Shown piece after piece: positions 1 to 9,824 of a stretch of 9,824 nt of DNA. The notes under the pieces were generated by a model. That model was not told the DNA's origin. It did not search any database and worked only from the letters and a program-made list of their open reading frames with translations. Origin of the DNA: a virus (lineage: Duplodnaviria > Heunggongvirae > Uroviricota > Caudoviricetes). The DNA is taken from the IMG/VR virus record IMGVR_UViG_2619619133_000002, positions 1 to 9,824 of that record; one strand, 5' to 3'. The position numbers and the translations under genes were made by a program. Positions within the stretch are counted from its first letter, which is position 1, and each line of letters begins with the position of its first letter.

Positions 1-9
1 GGGTGTAAT

Positions 10-447
10 ATGTTTTATAGTCCATCTTTAAACATTTTTGTGAATCCTGCACTTAAGGATGATTACATTAATGCAAATTCATGGCCAGATGATGCTCTGG
101 CTGTCAGTGATGATGTTTATAATGAATTTGCAATCAATACGCCTCCAGATGACAAAATTCGTGTTGCAGGAAAAAATGGATTACCCACATGGGCACTAAT
201 ACCTCCACCATCGCATGAAGAACTTATTCAACAGGCAGAATCAGAAAGGCAATTATTGCTTAATCAGGCCAACGAATACATGAACAGTAAGCAATGGCCC
301 GGTAAAGCCGCTATTGGTCGTCTGAAAGGTGATGAACTGGCGCAATATAATTTGTGGCTGGATTATCTGGACGCACTGGAGCTGATCGATACTTCCGGTG
401 CGCCAGATATTGAATGGCCTACGCCTCCGGCAGTTCAGGCCAGATGA
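10..447 (+). CDS. tfa: tail fibre assembly protein (lambda Tfa / Caudo_TAP-like), alternative copy inside the invertible segment
   Basis: ATG at 10 sits 1 nt after a frame-3 TAA (6-8) that closes an upstream ORF running off the window. The C-terminus ...[26 protein letters not shown] matches the conserved Tfa C-terminal motif (compare lambda Tfa ...VDTSTAPDIEWP, from memory). It converges on and overlaps the minus-strand tfa by 29 nt. Confidence 0.8.
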   Translation: MFYSPSLNIFVNPALKDDYINANSWPDDALAVSDDVYNEFAINTPPDDKIRVAGKNGLPTWALIPPPSHEELIQQAESERQLLLNQANEYMNSKQWPGKAAIGRLKGDELAQYNLWLDYLDALELIDTSGAPDIEWPTPPAVQAR

Positions 448-1024
448 CATCCGGCGCTGTGCTGGTATCTGTTGCCGTCACCGCGTCAATGTAATCCAGC
501 ACAGCGTTAAGGCGGGTTGTTTCTGCCTGCGTCAGCTTCCGTCCGGCCTGTAATTTCAGTTGAATCAGACTGATGGAGGCCATTGCAGTATCAATCAGCG
601 ACTGGCGCTGTGCTTCTGCTGCATCTACTGCTGCGCCGTGCTGTGCCTCGGTATCTGTCACCCATTTCTCACCATTCCATTCATCGTATGGCGTTAACGG
701 GGCGATAGTGGTTGTATTTTCAGGATAATCACCCGGAGCTGTGATTTCTTTCGATTCTCCTGTTTCGGTGCTATAGACGATTTCACCGCGATGATCTGGC
801 ACATATTCCCATGAATTTAAATCTACAGAGCGACAGATTGCATAACCAGCTTTATGTGTACCTGGTGCATCCAAACAAGAACATGCCGGGATACCGACGC
901 CGACAGCGAGATATTCAGTTGATGTAGAAATATATTCACGCGTTTCACCATCATAATTATAAATGATAATGTCTCCCGTTTTTATGGCAATGAGTTCACT
1001 ATTTAATACAGCTTTATTCATCAT
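419..1024 (-). CDS. tfa: tail fibre assembly protein (lambda Tfa / Caudo_TAP-like)
   Basis: 201 aa with Tfa-like blocks ([41 protein letters not shown]). The start codon overlaps the tail-fibre stop in an ATGA arrangement, suggesting translational coupling. Confidence 0.85.
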
Positions 1025-1806
1025 GCGGCCCTCACAATATAATTAAAGGCGATGTTACGTGGACGATTTTCATTTGCTGTTGGAACAACATTTGCCGCCG
1101 AGAAGTGAACATCTTGTCGGATTTTTCGGTCATTAGCGTATGTCATAGATACGTTGATGTTATTCCGGACTGAGGTACCTCCGTAAAAAGCACCACTCAC
1201 ACTTTGAACATCAACAATTGCATTTATTTCGCTGTTTACGCGCAACTGACCAAAACCGCCAGTAATGTTTCGAATAGCATCTCCTTGCGCTGAAAGCAGA
1301 GTTCGCCCACTATCCACACCACGTTCATCATCCCAGCCACGAATAAACTCACCGCGTAAATCTGGCAATTTATTTGTCGGATAAACTTTTGCCAGTTCCG
1401 GATACTCTTCGGCAGAAAAAGGCGCACCATTGCATTTCAGCCAGCCTGTTGGCGGAGTGGCTGAAGGCCACGGAACAGGCACACCAACGGGTAATGCCGA
1501 ACCTTCTCCCAAACCAAGGTTTTCGAGAGCCGTTTTCACGGTGCCATCCGATTTGATATCGCCAAACGGATTCTTGCGGCTTAACAGCAGCGCACGAAGC
1601 GCGGTAAGCAGCTGGTCGTGTTGCGCCTTCTCCAGACTAGCACCGGATGCCTCCACCACGCTGCAAAGCTCCTCCTGCAACATGTCAAAGTAGTCATCAT
1701 CCAGATCGGTAGCAGGCGTGCCAGTCTGGGGGTTACCACGGGTAAAACCGTTTTTACCCGCGCCGAACTTATCCTTCTGCGCGGTTTTCGTGTCTATACG
1801 ATGCAT
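1021..1806 (-). CDS. stf: short side tail fibre protein with a tail-collar-like C-terminal domain; N-terminal constant part joined to the C-terminal variable part at an invertase crossover site
   Basis: ATG at 1806 is preceded by GGAG and an in-frame TAA. The C-terminal region ([23 protein letters not shown]...[22 protein letters not shown]) looks like the phage tail collar / tail fibre tip family. Codons 93-101 (ALENLGLGE) are encoded by the putative crossover site. Confidence 0.75.
1504..1529. other. putative serine-invertase (Pin/Gin/Cin/Hin-type) crossover site embedded in the tail fibre gene
   Basis: 26-bp imperfect palindrome TTCTCCCAAACC-AA-GGTTTTCGAGAG; 9 of 12 half-site positions are symmetric. 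The AAACC-AA-GGTTT core resembles hix/gix/cix sites as recalled (e.g. hixL TTCTTGAAAACCAAGGTTTTTGATAA). Confidence 0.55.
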
Positions 1807-2617
1807 GGATTACTCCGGATACCGAACCGTTGAGCATCTCGATAACTTCCCGCCGCTTGTCGTAGCACGGCCCCTCAATGTTGTACCCGGCGGTGGTGAT
1901 GGCCCACATCAGTGGCTGACGTCGCGCGCCCATCCCGGTAAGCATCGTGGTATAAAGCGCATCGGTGGCGTGCTCGTGATATTCATCCACCACGGCACAG
2001 TGGGGTGATGAACCATCACCGGGGTTACCGATCAGCGGTTCAAACCGCGCGCCATCCTCCGGACGGTTCATGTTTGAGGCGTTAACCTCAATCCCGAACG
2101 CTTCCGTCAGCATGGGTGTGCGTTTACACATCAGTCGCGCCGGGCGAAAGACTTCCCACGCCTGTTTCTCTGTCGTGGCACCGGAATACACTTCCGCGCC
2201 AAACTCGTTATCACAGGCAAAACAATACAGGGCAACACCGGCAGAGATTGCCGATTTGCCGTTCTTACGGGGGATTTCGGTATACCCCTCCCTGAAGCGG
2301 CGCAGCCGGGAGCCTTTATTGACCCAGCCAAACGCACAGCAGATCACAAAGAGCTGCCACGGTTCCAGCGTGATGGGCATCCTCTTGAATGCCCACTCCC
2401 CCTTGGTGTGTGGCAACAGCTGAATAAATTTCGCGGCCCGTTCAGCCAGGTCCTTGTCGAAGCGGTAACGAAACGACTTACTTTTTTCCGCCATCAGGTC
2501 ATCAAGATGGCGCTGGCAGGCCTGAATCACAAACTGGCAGGCCACAATCTTTCCGCGCACGACATCACGGGCATACTGATTGGCAGCATTTACGTTGGGG
2601 TAAGATTTCCGGCTCAT
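1769..2617 (-). pseudogene. terL: terminase large subunit (HK97/Terminase_1-like), truncated: ATPase domain only
   Basis: Walker A-like PRKNGKS and Walker B-like AVVDEYHE are present. Only 282 aa are encoded, against roughly 550 aa or more expected; there is no nuclease domain. The frame ends 37 nt inside the next gene. ATG overlaps the terS stop (ATGA). Confidence 0.75.
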
Positions 2618-3108
2618 GATTCGATGATTTTCAGAAACGGGTTAGTGGCTTTCTTCTGCCCCGCCAGGCCAATCAGACGCTGGCGGCTGCTGGGGTCGAG
2701 TCCGAGCATTGCCCCCGTGCTGCTCATCTCGGACTCCTGTTCTTTCTTGGCGGTCAGCTCCGGATTTTTGACCATGCCACCCATTGCACCGGTGATGGTG
2801 TTGCCCTGTCTGGCAATATTTTTCACGGCACGCCGCCAGAACTCGTAGGCCACGCACCACCGCTCAAGCACCGCGAGGTCAGTCACGCACAGCAGGCCCT
2901 GACCGCAGAGTTCTTTGGTTGTCAGTTGCCACATGATCGTGGCGAGAGGGAGATCTTCTTCAGCGAACCACTCCGGTGGCTCAACACCTTTGATGGGCGT
3001 AAAAACAGGTTCATCTTTATTCAGGGCTCGCTTGCCGGGGTTTCCGGCCAGCGCCTTGCGCGCCGTTGGCTTGGGGCGACGCCCGGACCCCCCCGCCGTT
3101 CCAGCCAT
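2614..3108 (-). CDS. terS: terminase small subunit, P27 family
   Basis: N-terminal [26 protein letters not shown] is typical of P27-family TerS. ATG at 3108 has GGAG about 11 nt upstream; the ORF track starts at an in-frame GTG at 3117. It overlaps the terL start. Confidence 0.8.
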
Positions 3109-3143
3109 ATGCGGCACTCCTGGTTAAATTTCATTTTTCGCGG

Positions 3144-3210
3144 GTATAAAAAAACGAGGGGGCGGGCAGTCCGGAAGACGTCAGGTCACAGGGATGTGCC
3201 CCGCCCCTCC
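3144..3210 (-). terminator. GC-rich imperfect palindrome followed by a T7 run on the minus strand: putative intrinsic terminator and/or cos-region element between HNH and terS
   Basis: Arms CGAGGGGGCGGGCA (3155-3168) and TGCCCCGCCCCTCC (3197-3210) pair with two bulges. The loop contains the GACGTC palindrome. The minus strand reads stem then TTTTTTTA. Confidence 0.45.
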
Positions 3211-3233
3211 CCTCAGACAGTTGAGAGTTATTA

Positions 3234-3584
3234 TCACTTTAACCGTTCACGGACCGTCTTCGCCTTATGACACGGCCAACACAGACTCTGCAGATTACAG
3301 TCGGCATCAGTGCCGCCATGCGCTTTAGGGATGATGTGGTCAACGGTTTTCGCCTCACGCACCACACCGGCACGCAGACATAACTGACATAAACCTTTGT
3401 CACGCTTCAGCACACGCGCGCGGATAGCGTCCCACTTCGAACCATAACCGCGCTGATGACGGGACTGACCTGGCTTGTATTGCTTCCAGCCTTCGCTTTT
3501 GTGGCTTTCGCAGTAGCCTGACGGGTCTGTGGTTGTAGAGCGGCAGCCGCGAACACGGCAGGCTTTTGGGGTTCGTGGTGGCAT
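3234..3584 (-). CDS. phage HNH endonuclease (terminase-associated)
   Basis: 116 aa with CxxC...H...N...H...CxxCH signature (CRVRGC, CESH, DHIIPKAHGG, CWPCH). Position immediately upstream of terS is typical of HK97-like packaging modules. ATG has GGAG upstream. Confidence 0.85.
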   Translation of the reverse strand: MPPRTPKACRVRGCRSTTTDPSGYCESHKSEGWKQYKPGQSRHQRGYGSKWDAIRARVLKRDKGLCQLCLRAGVVREAKTVDHIIPKAHGGTDADCNLQSLCWPCHKAKTVRERLK

Positions 3585-3593
3585 TGGTAAGCT

Positions 3594-3628
3594 CCAATAA
3601 AAAAGCCACCATCGATTGCTAGTGGCTT
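3594..3628 (-). terminator. putative Rho-independent terminator downstream of the moron ORF
   Basis: 7-bp stem AAGCCAC / GTGGCTT (3603-3609 and 3622-3628) with a 12-nt loop, followed on the minus strand by TTTTTTATT. Confidence 0.45.
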
Positions 3629-3654
3629 AGCATCTACTAATGTGAAGAGTAGGT

Positions 3655-4413
3655 TTATTTTTTCTTCTTATTTAACTTATCTAAATTGACGGGATCTTTC
3701 CCTGTGGCAGCTAAACACCAAAAAGAATAACTCTTTTGCATGACATAGGTTCTAATTCTCTCTAATGTTTCATTATATTTTTTCTCAACAACCTGTATCG
3801 CATGTTCAAATAAATTAATCATATCAACATGCTCGTCCTCGACACCAATCATGCTCAGTTGTTTTCTATCTGTCACTGCTTGATAAAATGTTTTCCCATT
3901 TTTCCTTATTAGTAACAATGAAGTTTCTGCTGACTCATAGTCTTGGTTGCCGCTATGTGCTGCAAAATTATGCCTGTAGTTAATAATACAGTCATGCAAC
4001 CCAAAATATTCAGAATCAAGCCAATCACGCTCCATCTTTAACTTTCTCCCTTTAGCTTCAGAGAAAGCTTTACCATAAAACGTTAGGCTTGCCACAAATA
4101 ACGCTCTAATTTCACTTGATAAATCTAGATCAAGTATATTCCCGTATAACTTGCCATCTGTCCTTAATTCGTTTCTCCCTGCCAGTTCATTAGCTATTTG
4201 GTACCACTCTTTAGCACTTTTTAAGTCCCTATGAATTAGTGACAGTGAAGATGCTCTATCGGCAATACGCCCACTCAATTTTATGCGATCTACAATTTCA
4301 TTATTGAATGTATAAACCGCTTTAAATTCCCCCGTTTCGGAATCAATATAATATTCAACATCTAACCCTTCATATGATTCACACCCGGGACCTTCTAATT
4401 TTTTTCTTTTCAT
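3655..4413 (-). CDS. hypothetical protein in an AT-rich moron; contains an Rx5H motif (possible HEPN-like RNase)
   Basis: Long ORF in a sharply AT-rich island between Rz and HNH. ATG at 4413 is used here; the ORF track starts at an in-frame TTG at 4437. Motif NYRHNFAAH lies at 3955-3975. No family recognised by eye. Confidence 0.55.
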   Translation of the reverse strand: MKRKKLEGPGCESYEGLDVEYYIDSETGEFKAVYTFNNEIVDRIKLSGRIADRASSLSLIHRDLKSAKEWYQIANELAGRNELRTDGKLYGNILDLDLSSEIRALFVASLTFYGKAFSEAKGRKLKMERDWLDSEYFGLHDCIINYRHNFAAHSGNQDYESAETSLLLIRKNGKTFYQAVTDRKQLSMIGVEDEHVDMINLFEHAIQVVEKKYNETLERIRTYVMQKSYSFWCLAATGKDPVNLDKLNKKKK

Positions 4414-4494
4414 ATAGAATATCCATATACGTTTCAATTCTCAGTCAGCATAGTAGAAAAAAAAGATGTCCAGATCCATACATCGAAAGCAATT

Positions 4495-4959
4495 TTAGTT
4501 TTCACACTGACTAGAGATATAGTCCTGCAATGCTCTTATCTGTTTATAACTGATTTCAATTCTCTCTCTGAGGGTGAAATAATCCCGTTGAGCGGTGTCA
4601 GTAAGTCGGGGGGCGGTAGCATCATCCAGGCTGGTGGTAATGGTCGTTGATTGCACTCTCGGGCAACTAGCGGCGAGGAACAGCCGCTTAGTGCCAACAG
4701 CAACATCACGCTGAAGCTGTTCAATAGTTGCTTTAGCATTTGCAAGTTCTCCGGTGTATTTCGCATCGAGCGCAGAAACATCACGCTGGCGCTGCTGCAT
4801 CTCAGTAATGGTGGCGTTCGCCTGGCTGAGTTTTTCCTTCGCTTTATCGCGCTGTTCTTTGTAGGCGATGGCGTTATCACGATAATGATTAACAGCCCAT
4901 GATAGGCAGACGATGGTGCAGATAACCAGAGAGGACAGAATCGCAGTTACTCTACTCAT
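4495..4959 (-). CDS. Rz: i-spanin Rz
   Basis: [31 protein letters not shown]... is near-identical in pattern to lambda Rz as recalled. ATG at 4959 overlaps the end of R by 8 nt (ATGAGTAG). The ORF track's longer form begins at a TTG inside R. Confidence 0.85.
4536..4739 (-). CDS. Rz1: o-spanin Rz1 lipoprotein, embedded in the +1 frame of Rz
   Basis: [20 protein letters not shown] has a signal peptide and lipobox (LSGC). The proline-rich mature part [27 protein letters not shown] resembles lambda Rz1. Confidence 0.75.
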
Positions 4960-5434
4960 ATAGCTGAATTTCTCTGACCGTTCCGCCCGATTCTTTGAAT
5001 TTTTCAATCAGGCTGTCAACCTTATGTTCGAACTGACCATAACCAGCGCCCGGCAATGACGCCCAGATATTGCTGCAACGATCAATAGCCTGACGGATAT
5101 CGCCGCGATCAATCATCGGTAAAGCACCACGCTCTTTAATCTGCTGCAATGCCACAGCATCCTGGCTTTTTGGAGAGAAGTCTTTCAGCCCAAGCTGCTT
5201 ACGGTAAGCATCCCACCAGCGTGAAAGAAGCTGATAACGTCCTGCGGCTGTTGATTTAAGTTTCGGGTTTAGCGTGACAAGTTTGCGAGGGTGATCGGAG
5301 TAATCAGTGAACAGTTCACCTCCGACAATAACGTCATAACCGTGGTTACGTGTCGGTTGTCGCCCGTTATCCGTTCCTTCTGACCATGCCACCATATCGA
5401 GGAAAGCTTTACGCTGGGAATTTAGTACCTGCAT
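4952..5434 (-). CDS. R: endolysin, lambda R-type lytic transglycosylase
   Basis: [47 protein letters not shown]... matches lambda R as recalled along its whole length (160 aa). Confidence 0.9.
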
Positions 5435-5437
5435 AAA

Positions 5438-5764
5438 TTACTCCTTAGAGCCACCAAACTTATTACCGATTACTCTCATTGCAGCCCCACGAATAGCATC
5501 GACCCCGATCAGCCCAACGCCGCCACCAATGGCAACAGAAAGAGATTTAGGCCATCCGACATACTCAAGAGCGGATGCAAAAGTCAGCGTCAGAGCACCA
5601 CAGAGCAAAATCTCGAGCGTTTTTCGTTTCCAGCCACCACCACCGCCAAAATAGGCAATGCGCAAGCCAGCCATAACGATCGACATAATCACTGCGCCCA
5701 GCGGTGTGTCTCCACGCCACCAGCTCTGGACCAACTCCAGCCAGGTATTTGGGTTATGAGGCAT
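5438..5764 (-). CDS. S: holin, lambda S-like class I (three predicted TM segments)
   Basis: 108 aa with three hydrophobic segments and a G-rich loop (AYFGGGGGWKRKTL), comparable to the lambda/P22 S holin layout. Stop lies 3 nt from the R start. Confidence 0.8.
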   Translation of the reverse strand: MPHNPNTWLELVQSWWRGDTPLGAVIMSIVMAGLRIAYFGGGGGWKRKTLEILLCGALTLTFASALEYVGWPKSLSVAIGGGVGLIGVDAIRGAAMRVIGNKFGGSKE

Positions 5765-5902
5765 TTGTAGTTATCTCTCACCTCGCTGATACAGCAGGTG
5801 CAAATTGAGGGAACATCATGTACCGCAAATCAGAAGCGGAAACATCAAAGAAGCCGAACCGATGGAGAACTGCGGAATAGGCCAGGACCAACGAATCCCC
5901 AG

Positions 5903-5938
5903 CCACAGAAACGACAAAACCCGCTCGACGGCGGGTTT
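5903..5938 (-). terminator. putative Rho-independent terminator upstream of S (candidate tR'-like late terminator)
   Basis: Perfect 8-bp stem AAACCCGC / GCGGGTTT (5917-5924 and 5931-5938) with a 6-nt loop; the minus strand continues TTTTGTCGTTTCTG. Confidence 0.45.
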
Positions 5939-6015
5939 AAGCTGTGTGGCGAAGTAACCACTCTTAACAGATTACAATGTTTTTTGCGGACCGCGCTAAT
6001 GATTTCCTCTTTTTT

Positions 6016-6045
6016 TTGTTGTATTTTTCACACGGTTGCTAAAAT
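6016..6045 (+). promoter_or_regulatory. possible sigma70-like promoter for the cargo operon
   Basis: TTGTTG (6016-6021), 18-bp spacer, TAAAAT (6040-6045), about 15 nt before the ATG at 6061. Weak; by-eye only. Confidence 0.25.
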
Positions 6046-6060
6046 TATTTCGGATCGATA

Positions 6061-7002
6061 ATGAGTACAGAAAATAAGAATAAAACCAGGCGAGTGAGAG
6101 TTGGTTTTTTCACTGGTAATGGAAGCAAAAAAGATGGCACATCTGCTGCAAAACTAGCCTTTGAGCAAATGACCACAGCAGATACTGTAACTTTTCCAAT
6201 AACTTACACAACAGACACCCCAAATCGAGGGTTAAAGTTAGTTATTCTTCAAAAAGATACCACACTGCAATGTTACTTTGGTTACGTATCGTGGAGAAGG
6301 GAATGCCTACTACCGTTCATCGAGGATGCTACAGGTAGTGAGAGAACAATTCCTTTAAATGATAAAGATTCTGTAGTTGAAAGAACATATTTTATCTATT
6401 ACTACGAAACGGACTTATTAGCTATGACCCTCAACCATATAGGGCCCAAAGTAAATGATCTGGCATTCATTTTGTATAACAAAACTGATTTAAAAAGCGT
6501 CACTTTTGAAGCCATTTGGAAACAAGAGAGCATGAAGGAACTGCTTGAGGACGGAAATATCCTACGTAGTTTCGATCTTATAGTTGCTGCTCCAAGAAAC
6601 TTTAACAAAGCTAATTATAAGATTAAAAACCCTTTAGCTAATGAAATTATTGACATGGTTGTTGGTATGGGCGGGTCGCATCTAAGATTAAATATGCGAG
6701 GTCGGATTCGCCCGAAAAAACAAGGGTTTAACTATCTAAAAACTTCTGTCACCGATGCTATTAAGGAACTACTTGAACTTTTTCCAAAAGGTTCTGGAGG
6801 TCTAAAAATTAAAAAAATTGATGTAACAGAGCCATCCAATAGAACGCCCAAAAGTCTACTTGACCAAGTATTGGTCAGTACAAAGACAATCATTGTCAAA
6901 AGCGGTTATCCATCCGATTCTGATATCAGAACGGCGATGATATCTGCTAAAATTGATAACGCGAACTATCTTGCACAGTATGAGCTCGCTAGCAGAGACT
7001 AA
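6061..7002 (+). CDS. hypothetical protein, 313 aa, soluble; first gene of the AT-rich cargo operon
   Basis: Long ORF in an AT-rich island, on the opposite strand to all flanking phage genes. ATG is preceded by an in-frame TAA. No motif or family recognised by eye. Confidence 0.6.
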   Translation: MSTENKNKTRRVRVGFFTGNGSKKDGTSAAKLAFEQMTTADTVTFPITYTTDTPNRGLKLVILQKDTTLQCYFGYVSWRRECLLPFIEDATGSERTIPLNDKDSVVERTYFIYYYETDLLAMTLNHIGPKVNDLAFILYNKTDLKSVTFEAIWKQESMKELLEDGNILRSFDLIVAAPRNFNKANYKIKNPLANEIIDMVVGMGGSHLRLNMRGRIRPKKQGFNYLKTSVTDAIKELLELFPKGSGGLKIKKIDVTEPSNRTPKSLLDQVLVSTKTIIVKSGYPSDSDIRTAMISAKIDNANYLAQYELASRD

Positions 7003-7023
7003 TAACCAAGCATGGAGGACACA

Positions 7024-7473
7024 ATGAGAGAATTAGCCACTTTTCTCTGGAAATGCGTCCTCTGGATTCTGTTGACCTATGCAGCGACAAAACTGTTTAA
7101 ACCGATGAAGCATGCTGACGTACTCACAACAGCGGGGGTGCTCTCGACTATATCAGGCATCCTGTTTGGTTTTGTTCTGGCTGCAATATCTATATTTAGT
7201 AGTGCAAACAGCGATAAGGAAGGAGCAATTAATGCCCTTAAGCAAAACAACGTGTTACCAACTCTGGTAAATAGATTACTTTCAACAGGGTTAACTCTCA
7301 TCGTCGCATGTATATTTCCATTGATAGCGATGTTTCTACCTGATGATGTTATTGTTGCGGGCAAACCTATTGATTTCCTATTCATACTGTTAGGCTTATC
7401 CTCCCTTATAATTTCGCTATATACCTTCGGAAGGTGTTGGTTAGTGTTACGAAAAATCTTCCCCCACTTGTGA
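7024..7473 (+). CDS. small integral membrane protein, 3-4 predicted TM helices; second gene of the cargo operon
   Basis: ATG at 7024 has a perfect GGAGGA 6 nt upstream; the ORF track starts at ATG 7012. Four hydrophobic stretches (FLWKCVLWILLTYAA, GVLSTISGILFGFVLAAISIF, LLSTGLTLIVACIFPLIAMFL, IDFLFILLGLSSLIISLYTF). Starts 21 nt after the upstream gene. Confidence 0.6.
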   Translation: MRELATFLWKCVLWILLTYAATKLFKPMKHADVLTTAGVLSTISGILFGFVLAAISIFSSANSDKEGAINALKQNNVLPTLVNRLLSTGLTLIVACIFPLIAMFLPDDVIVAGKPIDFLFILLGLSSLIISLYTFGRCWLVLRKIFPHL

Positions 7474-7474
7474 C

Positions 7475-7502
7475 AGGTTGGCCTCATATGGGGCCAACCT
7501 GT
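7475..7502. other. perfect 10-bp inverted repeat (hairpin) between the convergent cargo operon and Q
   Basis: CAGGTTGGCC (7475-7484), 8-nt loop, GGCCAACCTG (7493-7502). No U-tract on either strand. Confidence 0.4.
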
Positions 7503-7508
7503 GCAACC

Positions 7509-7874
7509 CTAAGCGTCCATTTCAAGGTTAACATCCAACATTGAAAGGCAACCATCAATAAATCCTTCGGCTAGTTGTATTTCTATGCGTACCAATTTTT
7601 CATCCTTTCCACGCACCTTTGCAATCTTACGCTTGGATATTCTGTATAAATAATGTGCCACAAGCAGCGAGTGCTCATCTGGCTTTTTTTGCTTTAGACG
7701 AGCAAGACAACCTTCAATAATTAATGCATCACTATCTGAACAAGCCTGACGTGTTTTGCTTGTGTAGGGAAGAAGCCCCTTAAACCCAGCAGCTATAGGC
7801 GAATAGTCTACTCCAGAACTATCACTCGCCGCCCATGCTCCCCAACGCTCCAGAACCATCTGAATATCACGCAT
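7509..7874 (-). CDS. Q: late antiterminator Q (phage 82 / QuuD-type)
   Basis: MRDIQMVLERWGAWAA... matches the N-terminus of E. coli prophage QuuD-family Q proteins as recalled. ATG at 7874 has GGAG upstream; the ORF track begins one codon earlier at TTG. Confidence 0.85.
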   Translation of the reverse strand: MRDIQMVLERWGAWAASDSSGVDYSPIAAGFKGLLPYTSKTRQACSDSDALIIEGCLARLKQKKPDEHSLLVAHYLYRISKRKIAKVRGKDEKLVRIEIQLAEGFIDGCLSMLDVNLEMDA

Positions 7875-7891
7875 CAACTTTCTCCACCAAA

Positions 7892-8887
7892 TCAGGCCAA
7901 CACACCAATCGCCAGCGCGCGATCGATAAAACGAAATATCAGCTCCAGTTGGGAGCCATACTTCTCTTCAAATGCCACGGTATCCGCATGCAGCTCGTCG
8001 TGATGCTTTCTGCACAAAGGCAACACAAAGAGGTCATGCGCTTTTGTACCCATTCCACCCTGACCGTGACCTATCAGGTGGTGGGGATCATCAGCAGGCT
8101 TTCCACAACATGCACACGGCTGTGTCTTAACCCAGCGCGTGTACTTTTCATTAACCCAGCGGCGGCGTTTTGGGCGTAACATAAAAGACTCCGGCGACTC
8201 CGGATCCACTTTCAGCGCCAGCACCTTTTTCGCTTTATCCTGGATAATGCTGGTGGCAGGAACCGAAGGTACAAGGTCACTTTCCCGGGTGACCGCCTGC
8301 ACAACAGGCTTCGGTAATCTCAGTGCCTTACGGGCTGCGCTTTCCGGTAAGGCATCCGCCAGATCATTACGAACCAGCCACCAGCACAGTTCCGGCATTG
8401 TCACAACGTGACTGTCATCAAAACCAAGATCCCGACGCACAACAGACAACACCCAGCGGGCACAGTTATCCGTTGCCATTGATTCCAGCCGTTCCGTGAA
8501 CTGATCGCGCAGCTGGTTATCGCAGTGCCAGCACAGACGGATTGCGCCCGGAGCGTGTCGCATTGTGGTCATGTTCTCGCTGTGCCAGTCGGAATGAGGC
8601 CACTGGCAGCCTTTTTCACGAAGTAACCAGCTTTCAAGACATTCCACGCCACCAGCACGACGGATCACTGCCTCATTGCGGAACACGGCCCGAACGGCAG
8701 GATCATCCGCCAGCGGTTGTGATGCCGCCGGAACGGCACCACTGGCGAAAGATGAATAACGTTCCGGCTCAGGCTCCAGCAGGACACGCCCCTGCATAAA
8801 CAGGGGCATCAGCTCTGAACCTGGTCTGAACAAAACGATCCCCATACGCGGGGCAATTTCAGGGGTCAGTAGTGCTCTCACGGTCAC
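7892..8887 (-). CDS. DUF968-like prophage protein with C-terminal HNH/zinc-ribbon-like motif
   Basis: 331 aa. C-terminus CACCGKPADDPHHLIGHGQGG...LPLCRKHHDELH. Position immediately upstream of Q matches YdfU-like DUF968 genes in E. coli cryptic prophages (from memory). Apparent GTG start 1 nt after the upstream stop; the true start is uncertain. Confidence 0.65.
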   Translation of the reverse strand: MTVRALLTPEIAPRMGIVLFRPGSELMPLFMQGRVLLEPEPERYSSFASGAVPAASQPLADDPAVRAVFRNEAVIRRAGGVECLESWLLREKGCQWPHSDWHSENMTTMRHAPGAIRLCWHCDNQLRDQFTERLESMATDNCARWVLSVVRRDLGFDDSHVVTMPELCWWLVRNDLADALPESAARKALRLPKPVVQAVTRESDLVPSVPATSIIQDKAKKVLALKVDPESPESFMLRPKRRRWVNEKYTRWVKTQPCACCGKPADDPHHLIGHGQGGMGTKAHDLFVLPLCRKHHDELHADTVAFEEKYGSQLELIFRFIDRALAIGVLA

Positions 8888-8888
8888 C

Positions 8889-9686
8889 TCAATGAACGGT
8901 ATCGAGCAGCTTTAACAGCTCAGGGAATCGGGACTCGAAGAAATGCGGCTGCGTCTCGCGCGGATTTGCGGGACTGGTGATGTTCTTGCCGAACATGCAG
9001 CCTTTCGCTGTCAGCGACCAGAATTTTTTGATGTTGTTAATCGCGGTACGGCTGTATCGTTCGCGCTGCTCGACGATCCCCAGCTTCACCATCTGGTGAT
9101 ATGCCTGATTAGCCGTCAGGCGGATACCATACTGTTTCAGCAGTGCACTCAGTGACAGTGTCGGGCGACTTGAGCCATCGTGTGCATCAGCAGGAGCATC
9201 AATGGCATAGCGCGGTGCCAGATTCGGTAAGCCAACAGCCTCCTGAAGCTTCTGACAGGCTCCAAGCACTGATGAGTTAGACAGGTTTAATTCCCGGCGC
9301 ATAAAGTCCAGCAGGATCACGCCAGCCTGCATCTTGTCAGCAGCCTGCCCGGATAATTTTTCAGGTGTGCTGGTTACCATATCGAAAGTACGGATCACCT
9401 TCAGATGGAATGACGGGCTGATCCACATTGCATAGGCATACACCAGTTCTTTGCAGACATACGTCCCCTGGTTATTTCCGCCACGAATAACGTTAACTGG
9501 CTCTATATTGACCGAGTTGCAAATTTGCAACTCGCTTATTAAACGTTCAGTTTGCTCATTGCGGAGCCAGAATGCAGGCTTATGCTTATCCAGAGAACCG
9601 GCAGCCCTGTGCAGATCGTTCAGGCTGTAACGCCCATAAGCATCACGACGAACTTCAATACCATCAATAACCATCAGATTATTCAT
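8889..9686 (-). CDS. KilA-N domain-containing protein
   Basis: N-terminus MNNLMVIDGIEVRRDAYGRYSLNDLHRAAG...FWLRNEQTERLISEL fits the KilA-N pattern (IDG.EIR.D..GR..LNDLH). Strong AGGAGA RBS upstream of ATG 9686. Confidence 0.7.
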   Translation of the reverse strand: MNNLMVIDGIEVRRDAYGRYSLNDLHRAAGSLDKHKPAFWLRNEQTERLISELQICNSVNIEPVNVIRGGNNQGTYVCKELVYAYAMWISPSFHLKVIRTFDMVTSTPEKLSGQAADKMQAGVILLDFMRRELNLSNSSVLGACQKLQEAVGLPNLAPRYAIDAPADAHDGSSRPTLSLSALLKQYGIRLTANQAYHQMVKLGIVEQRERYSRTAINNIKKFWSLTAKGCMFGKNITSPANPRETQPHFFESRFPELLKLLDTVH

Positions 9687-9705
9687 ACTTCGTTTCTCCT
9701 CTTAA

Positions 9706-9824
9706 TCAGGCGGCTGCCCCCGCCGGTTTCTCGTACTTACTGATAGTGATCTCGACCTTCCCTTCCGGGATAACCGGTCCCCACTCCACCAGCATTCTTT
9801 TCACCTGACTGTCGTCTTCCCACA
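9706..9824 (-). CDS. partial CDS, C-terminal end only; product unknown
   Basis: Open frame from the window edge to TGA at 9706-9708, ending ...WEDDSQVKRMLVEWGPVIPEGKVEITISKYEKPAGAAA. The 5' end is outside the window. Confidence 0.35.
   Translation of the reverse strand, partial: WEDDSQVKRMLVEWGPVIPEGKVEITISKYEKPAGAAA

Follow-up and report, generated by a model that had tools for sequence, protein, structure and literature searches.

Genomic context and organization of the cassette

The stretch of DNA analysed here, referred to as the window, comprises 9,824 nucleotides (nt) of a Caudoviricetes virus (IMG/VR record IMGVR_UViG_2619619133_000002, positions 1 to 9,824) and covers the part of a prophage that carries its late-regulation, lysis and packaging genes. 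Between the genes of the antiterminator Q and the holin S there is an inserted cassette of two genes, A and B, predicted to encode a soluble protein and a membrane protein. The cassette is proposed to be a prophage-borne RexAB-type exclusion system, working by abortive infection or growth arrest and composed of very divergent homologues of RexA and RexB, and a probability of roughly two in three is given to this assignment. RexAB is the oldest known abortive-infection system. The features of the cassette are the following, in amino acids (aa) for the gene products and with transmembrane abbreviated as TM.

6013 to 7508 (approximate), + strand: whole inserted cassette with promoter region, gene A, gene B and terminal hairpin; GC content 0.391; limits from comparison of the flanks with empty sites
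6016 to 6060, + strand: candidate A-B operon promoter and leader, with TTGTTG at 6016–6021, an 18-nt spacer and TAAAAT at 6040–6045, read from the sequence
6061 to 7002, + strand: gene A, 313 aa, predicted soluble, without TM segments; divergent DUF6731 (PF20505) protein and probable remote RexA homologue
7014 to 7019, + strand: Shine-Dalgarno sequence GGAGGA of gene B, 4 nt 5' of the B ATG
7024 to 7473, + strand: gene B, 149 aa, predicted inner-membrane protein with four predicted TM helices, RexB-like by its family, AlphaFold model, hhalign and Foldseek
7473 to 7504, no strand assigned: hairpin whose stem has 13 bp, flanked by the convergent B and Q stops, found by folding energy

An initial annotation, made from the letters of the window, had described a tight operon at 6061–7002 and 7024–7473 with a 21-nt gap and a GGAGGA before the second gene. 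These coordinates were confirmed, and both coding sequences (CDS) are annotated alike in RefSeq. The gap runs from the A stop at 7000–7002 to the B ATG at 7024, which is the start used in RefSeq and the point at which all B homologues begin; an alternative ATG at 7012 would give a product of 153 aa. The description of the cassette as an AT-rich island in a backbone of about 50% GC also holds, as the GC content is 0.391 from 6013 to 7508 (0.377 for A and 0.411 for B) and 0.514 in the window minus its two AT-rich islands. Every neighbouring gene is on the - strand, so that the cassette is antisense to its surroundings, as had been stated.

The hairpin at 7473–7504 is perfect and GC-rich and has a folding energy of -25.8 kcal/mol on the + strand (z -4.3) and -21.4 kcal/mol on the - strand (z -3.5), and 0 of 200 shuffled sequences were as stable. 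It has no U-run. The hairpin is likely a bidirectional transcript-end or RNA-stability element and may be a recombination scar at the edge of the cassette. At the other end, the regions upstream of A in other alleles are AT-rich and cannot be aligned with one another.

The gene A product

The gene A product does not exhibit significant matches in Pfam, NCBIfam or PADLOC, and none was found in a sequence search of the PDB. In PHROGs it belongs to phrog_7651, and both A and B reach only families of unknown function there. A large protein search with A returned 46 clusters from Enterobacterales, of which those at 44–61% identity carry PF20505 (DUF6731). The DUF6731 hidden Markov model (HMM) is matched by 22 of 37 aligned A homologues, with the window protein itself falling below it. 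When distant PF20505 members (<27% identity) were compared with the window subfamily, the alignment had a probability of 99.9% and an E-value of 6e-35, and sister A alleles are labelled "DUF6731 family protein" in RefSeq. On these profiles A is assigned to DUF6731 as a divergent member, which supplies a name where the initial annotation could offer none. The family is sparse: when 1.84 billion representatives were searched with a profile, only 172 relatives were retrieved.

The top structural match of the A model is lambda RexA, followed by RdgC, CHL4, IML3 and CENP-N. The same set of folds has been reported for RexA (PMC11077077). In the model, the globular domain is split by an alpha/beta domain inserted into it. 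The elements are predicted in the order of a sheet of several strands together with helices at the N-terminus, four strands and three helices that make up the middle domain, and one strand and one helix at the C-terminus. This order agrees with the published plan of RexA, likewise a split globular domain with an inserted domain. RdgC (PDB 2OWL), which scores below RexA as a match for A, differs in being a stand-alone recombination modulator without a membrane partner.

The likeness extends to sequence when whole families are compared. An hhalign comparison of 87 DUF6731 sequences with 25 RexA sequences gave 251 collinear columns (14–293 against 2–270) at P 1.5e-3, and the distant DUF6731 members on their own gave 256 columns at P 1e-3, with column-reversed controls at P 0.07–0.13 over approximately 65 columns. 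The most conserved motif of A, N125-H-x-G-P-K-x2-D133-L, pairs with the conserved F-G-P-T-T-S-D-L (T-T-x-D-L) of RexA. Single-sequence hhalign of A and B yielded no significant alignment with lambda RexA, lambda RexB or Sbash gp30/gp31, and family profiles are needed for the Rex link. Taken with its lack of TM segments, A is predicted to have the RexA/RdgC fold and to correspond to the soluble partner of a Rex pair.

Two Escherichia phages, vB_EcoS-733R5 and vB_EcoS-716R3, carry an A homologue (45% identity, 97% coverage) that is annotated as "portal (connector) protein" (ON470608.1, 30277–31179, locus H81; ON470622.1, 15473–16375, locus H82). This label is almost certainly a misannotation.

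The gene B product

As with A, nothing significant was found for the gene B product in Pfam, NCBIfam or PADLOC, nor in a PDB sequence search. DUF4064 and MusI appeared as marginal matches far below the cut-offs and were disregarded. The B family comprises 84 clusters. The AlphaFold model of B (pLDDT 79) contains four long helices, in keeping with the four TM segments foreseen by the initial annotation, and a short central-loop helix at residues 68–74. The second TM helix (TM2) is almost invariant and glycine-rich, reading S-T-x-S-G-I-L-F-G-F-V-L-A-A-I-S-I (T42-x2-G-I-L-F-G-F-V), and the central loop (residues 61–76) is conserved at G67, A71, L72 and K73.

A RexB-family profile was built from seven diverse rexB genes. 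The hhalign comparison of this profile with B and the partners of four distant DUF6731 genes gave P 3.5e-4 over 77 columns (controls 0.10–0.28), and the distant B members alone gave P 7.2e-6 with a probability of 84% (controls 0.31–0.55); the signal strengthens as the B profile gains diversity. The aligned stretch consists of TM2 and the central loop, in which the RexB motif LAKIREYGYMTS (L-A-K-I-R-E-Y-G-Y-M-T-S) corresponds to IAKLKKHGYYS in the partner of the distant A gene at locus L043.

Foldseek analysis of B against BFVD placed a 165-aa protein of phage Sbash at rank 2, with a probability of 1.0, a TM-score of 0.53/0.49 and E-values for B of only 0.01–0.03. The match is identified as gp31, because gene 31 is the sole Sbash gene that encodes 165 aa. 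Sbash gp31 is the RexB-like effector of the validated gp30/gp31 defence system, and defence requires the central loop of gp31 (PMC6426596). The rank 1 matches of A and of B in BFVD both belong to the same uncultured phage, ctylc9, which thus has another such pair. By profile and model, the B family appears related to RexB and RexB-like effectors. The initial annotation had seen a RexA/RexB layout and no sequence similarity to either protein; the layout is supported and is extended here to probable remote homology of both partners, which the family profiles bring out.

Co-inheritance, distribution and selection

Among 80 viral loci in IMG/VR, in which A ranges from 43 to 100% identity, 78 have B immediately downstream of A; of the two exceptions, one is a coordinate overlap and the other a truncated A. 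The A-then-B order also holds in relatives of approximately 20–30% identity (loci L011, L012, L043 and L044), and the pair occurs in phage cdtI. The layout of two adjacent, co-oriented genes, encoding a soluble protein of approximately 30–40 kDa and then a four-TM protein of approximately 145–190 aa, is that of a Rex pair, and carriage is by temperate phages and prophages (a complete prophage and 80 IMG/VR viral contigs). Since fold, remote homology and A-then-B co-inheritance agree, A and B are assigned to one RexAB-type system.

Vibrio phage 10N.286.54.F4_PE001 (L133, PQ189356.1) is a temperate, non-tailed, PM2-like phage of the Vinavirales with a genome of 14.6 kb. It encodes an A-like protein of 351 aa and a B-like protein of 150 aa at 1389–2896, directly after the integrase, so that the cassette is shared between tailed phages and a phage of another viral realm. 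In P2-like phages of the SopE-phage type (L127 and L128; in L128, UViG_2537561601_000002, at 324–3565), an A-B allele of 43% identity is found approximately 1.1 kb from sopE and adjoining tail-fibre assembly genes; the virulence moron sopE and the A-B cassette therefore share one cargo region. Plasmid pHNAH212872-2 (L132, NZ_CP104632.1, 100.9 kb) contains the same prophage region, extending from the head genes past the A-B cassette as far as the immunity region, and this may be a prophage integrated in the plasmid or a phage-plasmid.

Four alleles taken together are present in at least 126 of 5,426 complete E. coli genomes. The comparison of the Q-S interval across related prophages, which the initial annotation had proposed, revealed empty sites as well as divergent alleles at one locus: in two E. 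coli prophages that are near-identical nearby (DUF968 98%), the A alleles are 47% and the B alleles 54% identical, and a range of 45–47% was recorded for alleles at this locus. Such low identity at a shared locus is turnover typical of accessory or defence cargo. The open reading frames (ORFs) are constant in length across alleles of 54–87% identity (A 313–316 aa, B 148–149 aa). With dN at approximately 0.09 and dS saturated, omega is approximately 0.05–0.11 where measurable. On these grounds A and B are real genes under strong purifying selection, which excludes chance ORFs.

The pairing also bears on a different explanation, in which A would be an RdgC-like DNA-binding protein for recombination or replication control and B an unrelated membrane protein that merely travels with it, for instance a superinfection-exclusion protein or injection blocker, or a holin/antiholin-like modulator. 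The sequence similarity is weak enough to leave room for this, with hhalign probabilities of 17–37% for the full profiles; the fold of A is common to RdgC and the kinetochore proteins, chance matches come easily to four-helix membrane bundles such as B with its low Foldseek significance, and the cassette adjoins the lysis genes. It is made very improbable by the B-RexB alignment (P 7e-6 against controls of 0.3–0.55), which falls on the functionally critical central loop, and by strict A-then-B co-inheritance down to approximately 20% identity and across viral realms, as expected of one two-part machine. The cassette is furthermore antisense to the lysis genes and outside the late transcript.

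Insertion site between Q and pR'

The - strand genes of the window are, in order, KilA-N, DUF968/HNH, Q, holin S, GH24 lysozyme, Rz, HNH, P27-type small terminase and large terminase, and identical DNA is found in E. coli LD22-1 in a complete prophage integrated at tRNA-Thr adjoining proA. The features that flank the cassette are listed below.

5438 to 5764, - strand: holin S, neighbouring gene
5908 to 5938, - strand: tR'-like intrinsic terminator outside the cassette, with a stem at 5938–5917 and a T-run; -12.8 kcal/mol
5971 to 5999, - strand: candidate late promoter pR' outside the cassette, with -35 TTAGCG at 5999–5994, a 17-nt spacer and -10 TGTAAT at 5976–5971
7509 to 7877, - strand: antiterminator Q outside the cassette (PF06530, E-value 7.7e-52), convergent with B

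An artificial junction of the two flanks (5765–6015 joined to 7505–7900) was searched in the 5,426 E. coli genomes. Three genomes, among them E. coli KC-Dl-1, gave an uninterrupted match over the junction, and these are empty sites. In the alignment with an empty-site prophage, homology breaks at approximately 6012–6016 and at the Q stop at 7509–7511. In the empty-site prophages, the counterpart of 6012–5906 of the window comes immediately after the Q stop codon. This sequence carries a sigma-70-like - strand promoter, a conserved block and, approximately 45–50 nt downstream, an intrinsic terminator; the tR'-like terminator is kept without the cassette. The homologous segment adjoins Q in the phages SfII, SfIV and cdtI and in Stx2 phages, and loci of E. 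coli, Yersinia and Xenorhabdus all retain the pR' element next to gene A. This arrangement is read as pR'/tR', the target of Q, with the promoter coordinates as a candidate. Because the Q stop stands directly before the pR' segment in empty-site prophages, the cassette is placed between the Q stop codon and pR', upstream of pR'/tR' and outside the late transcript.

The genes known as stx are positioned downstream of tR'. The initial annotation had located the cassette between Q and S, which is correct, and had equated this site with the stx position, which is not. A stx-type moron in the late transcript was considered and is ruled out by the position upstream of pR' and on the opposite strand. 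The Q-pR' junction can hold cargo and represents a new site, distinct from the classic stx site. The empty-site prophage of KC-Dl-1 (L046, 1091–2500) has a tRNA-Ile gene and approximately 1 kb of unannotated DNA downstream of pR'/tR' and before the holin, an interval that is only approximately 150 nt in the window. It appears that prophages use one or the other of the two cargo positions that flank pR'. Between two E. coli prophages (L002 compared with 7509–8887 of the window), DUF968 is 98.5% and Q 87% identical, followed by the 47% of A and 54% of B given above, and a recombination boundary is therefore placed inside Q or at its end. The cassette and pR' seem to take the 3' part of Q along with them.

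A convergent PF06530-type Q adjoins the pair in 73 of 78 viral loci, and the order of Q, then B and A, then pR' is common to E. coli, Citrobacter, Yersinia and Xenorhabdus. The candidate A promoter lies back to back with pR', from which gene A diverges. This conserved position exactly between Q and its target fits an unlikely reading in which A regulates the development of its own prophage, binding DNA near pR'/qut and tuning Q-dependent late transcription or induction, with B as a membrane anchor or antagonist; it is modelled on the RexB-independent effect of RexA at the CI-Cro switch. The pair also occurs without a nearby Q, beside sopE and tail-fibre assembly genes, between tail genes and a Bro-N gene, after the integrase of the PM2-like Vibrio phage and in the distant loci L043 and L044, and a function tied to Q was rejected on this account. 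In addition, prophages with empty sites work without the cassette. The linkage is most simply explained by hitch-hiking inside a Q-qut specificity module, as Q and qut/pR' must stay together and the intervening DNA is co-inherited.

The second AT-rich island of the window (3655–4437, - strand, GC content 0.35) contains one ORF of 260 aa (252 aa in RefSeq) that belongs to phrog_8440, of unknown function, and no match to it was obtained in Pfam, PADLOC, NCBIfam or the PDB. Homologues were found in a small element of Vibrio cyclitrophicus (PQ189351, 33% identity) and in Escherichia phage 2H10 (29%). The ORF has Rz on one side and the HNH/terminase genes on the other and stands immediately upstream of the packaging module, where Tai defence genes are usually sited according to a 2024 paper. 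It is a candidate second cargo or defence gene.

Comparison with described Rex systems and proposed function

Only five Rex-like systems are counted as described in a 2026 paper (PMC12894663). The lambda rexA and rexB genes (PF15969/PF15968; PDB 8TWQ) likewise form a prophage operon in which a soluble protein is encoded first and a four-TM protein of approximately 145 aa second, after a short gap. Lambda RexB has 144 aa, compared with 149 aa for B, and it is over TM2 and the central loop that it aligns with the B family. The lambda proteins differ from A and B in sequence (approximately 12% identity), and A is 34 aa longer than RexA. Lambda rexAB is located downstream of cI under pRM, whereas A-B lies between Q and pR' with its own candidate promoter and would therefore be uncoupled from the immunity region.

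By analogy, the best functional precedent is RexABpp of Pseudomonas putida prophage P1 (PP_5643/PP_5644), whose four-TM partner is likewise without easy RexB homology. Both of its genes are needed, over-expression of its A protein leads to a growth arrest that depends on its B protein, and the A protein binds DNA (PMC12894663). RexABpp differs in size, with 37.5 kDa for RexApp-His and at least 181 aa for RexBpp, and in its place near a CI-like repressor; judged by sizes alone, the comparison suggests that PP_5643/PP_5644 are outside the A and B families. Sbash gp30/gp31 and gp44/gp43 of Gordonia phage CarolAnn are also soluble and four-TM pairs that are expressed from the prophage and defend against heterotypic phages. 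They have no detectable sequence similarity to A-B, their hosts are Actinobacteria and their genes are near the immunity region; Sbash gp30 has 372 aa and gp31 165 aa (A 313 aa, B 149 aa).

The mechanism proposed for the cassette is modelled on the systems of lambda, Sbash, CarolAnn and P. putida. In a lysogen, the pair would be expressed from a promoter of its own, regardless of the late operon. The A protein, soluble and probably dimeric with a DNA-clamp fold like that of RexA and RdgC, would sense a cue from an infecting phage, either a DNA-protein intermediate of replication or recombination, bound by A, or a phage protein. It would then engage the conserved central loop of B. The B protein, a four-helix protein of the inner membrane, would oligomerise and act as a channel that opens the membrane or otherwise perturb it, such that membrane potential and ATP collapse. 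Growth arrest would follow and the superinfecting phage would fail to multiply, which would appear as phage resistance.

The wiring may be reversed, as in gp30/gp31 of mycobacteriophage Butters, a prophage pair of soluble and membrane proteins that is counted as Rex-like and differs in that the soluble protein is the effector and is sequestered by the membrane protein. Applied to the cassette, A would be the toxic or antiviral effector, held by B until infection. The evidence from fold, pairing and topology fits either wiring, and reversal is used by one of the five described systems (PMC12894663). It is considered quite unlikely here, given that the membrane protein is the effector in four of the five and that the extremely conserved, glycine-rich TM2 and central loop of B are more readily expected of an active channel or effector than of a passive anchor.

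Several observations weigh against the assignment of the cassette as a RexAB-type exclusion system. The structure models of A and B are of medium confidence (pLDDT 76–79). In Foldseek searches of BFVD, lambda RexA was outside the top 50 for A, which retrieved uncharacterised phage proteins and phage RdgC instead, and lambda RexB was outside the top 50 for B. The hhalign signal between RexB and the B window subfamily alone is weak (P 0.012, reversed controls 0.05–0.07), the stronger link passing through distant members and not through the subfamily of the window. The Pfam models of RexA (PF15969) and RexB (PF15968) and the PADLOC models of both gave no match for A, B or 37 members of the A family at E-values up to 10, and they match the lambda proteins at 1e-61 to 1e-108. 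These models also miss the validated Sbash gp30/31, and their failure therefore speaks to divergence and not to mechanism. DUF6731, PF20505, the RefSeq accessions and the PHROG numbers are not mentioned in the literature searched, which contains no experiment on the family. A consensus promoter scan reported none for gene A, and the candidate -35 fits the consensus at only 3 of 6 positions. The cassette is approximately 6 kb from the LexA-family repressor, unlike canonical rexAB, which follows cI in all sampled cases, and unlike all described Rex-like systems, which are next to a repressor gene (PMC11077077, PMC12894663). Adjacency to a repressor is typical of RexAB and is not mechanistically required. 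For lambda itself, exclusion as the "true" function of Rex is debated.

A broader and more tentative possibility is that DUF6731 and its four-TM partner form a large unrecognised branch of Rex, freed from the immunity region and mobile among lambdoid, P2-like and PM2-like phages, with a trigger specificity and targets unlike those of lambda Rex. As part of the same doubtful proposal, transcriptional readthrough out of the Q gene may run antisense into the cassette and switch the system off during the lytic growth of its own prophage, which would be a built-in self-immunity.

Significance for the Rex family

The A-B family introduces no new principle; it is unannotated, fairly widespread and, in the literature searched, not tied to Rex. 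The suggestion in the initial annotation that the system may be undescribed thus holds for the link of this family to RexAB and not for the RexAB-type kind, which has been described. Linking DUF6731 and its partner to RexA and RexB would give a function to a domain of unknown function, and the Rex set would gain a whole enterobacterial family, with members in E. coli, Salmonella, Yersinia, Klebsiella, Serratia, Proteus and Xenorhabdus as well as in Vibrio phages. There is also a gap in annotation, in that the PADLOC RexA/RexB HMMs miss both the DUF6731 family and validated Rex-like systems. The E. coli member would be a tractable model, easily tested with standard phage panels. The residues common to divergent RexA-like and RexB-like proteins, namely the G-P-x3-D-L motif, a basic patch (R213, R215, K218 and K219 in A) that follows the third strand of the A middle domain, and the motif of TM2 and the central loop, could guide work on the mechanism.

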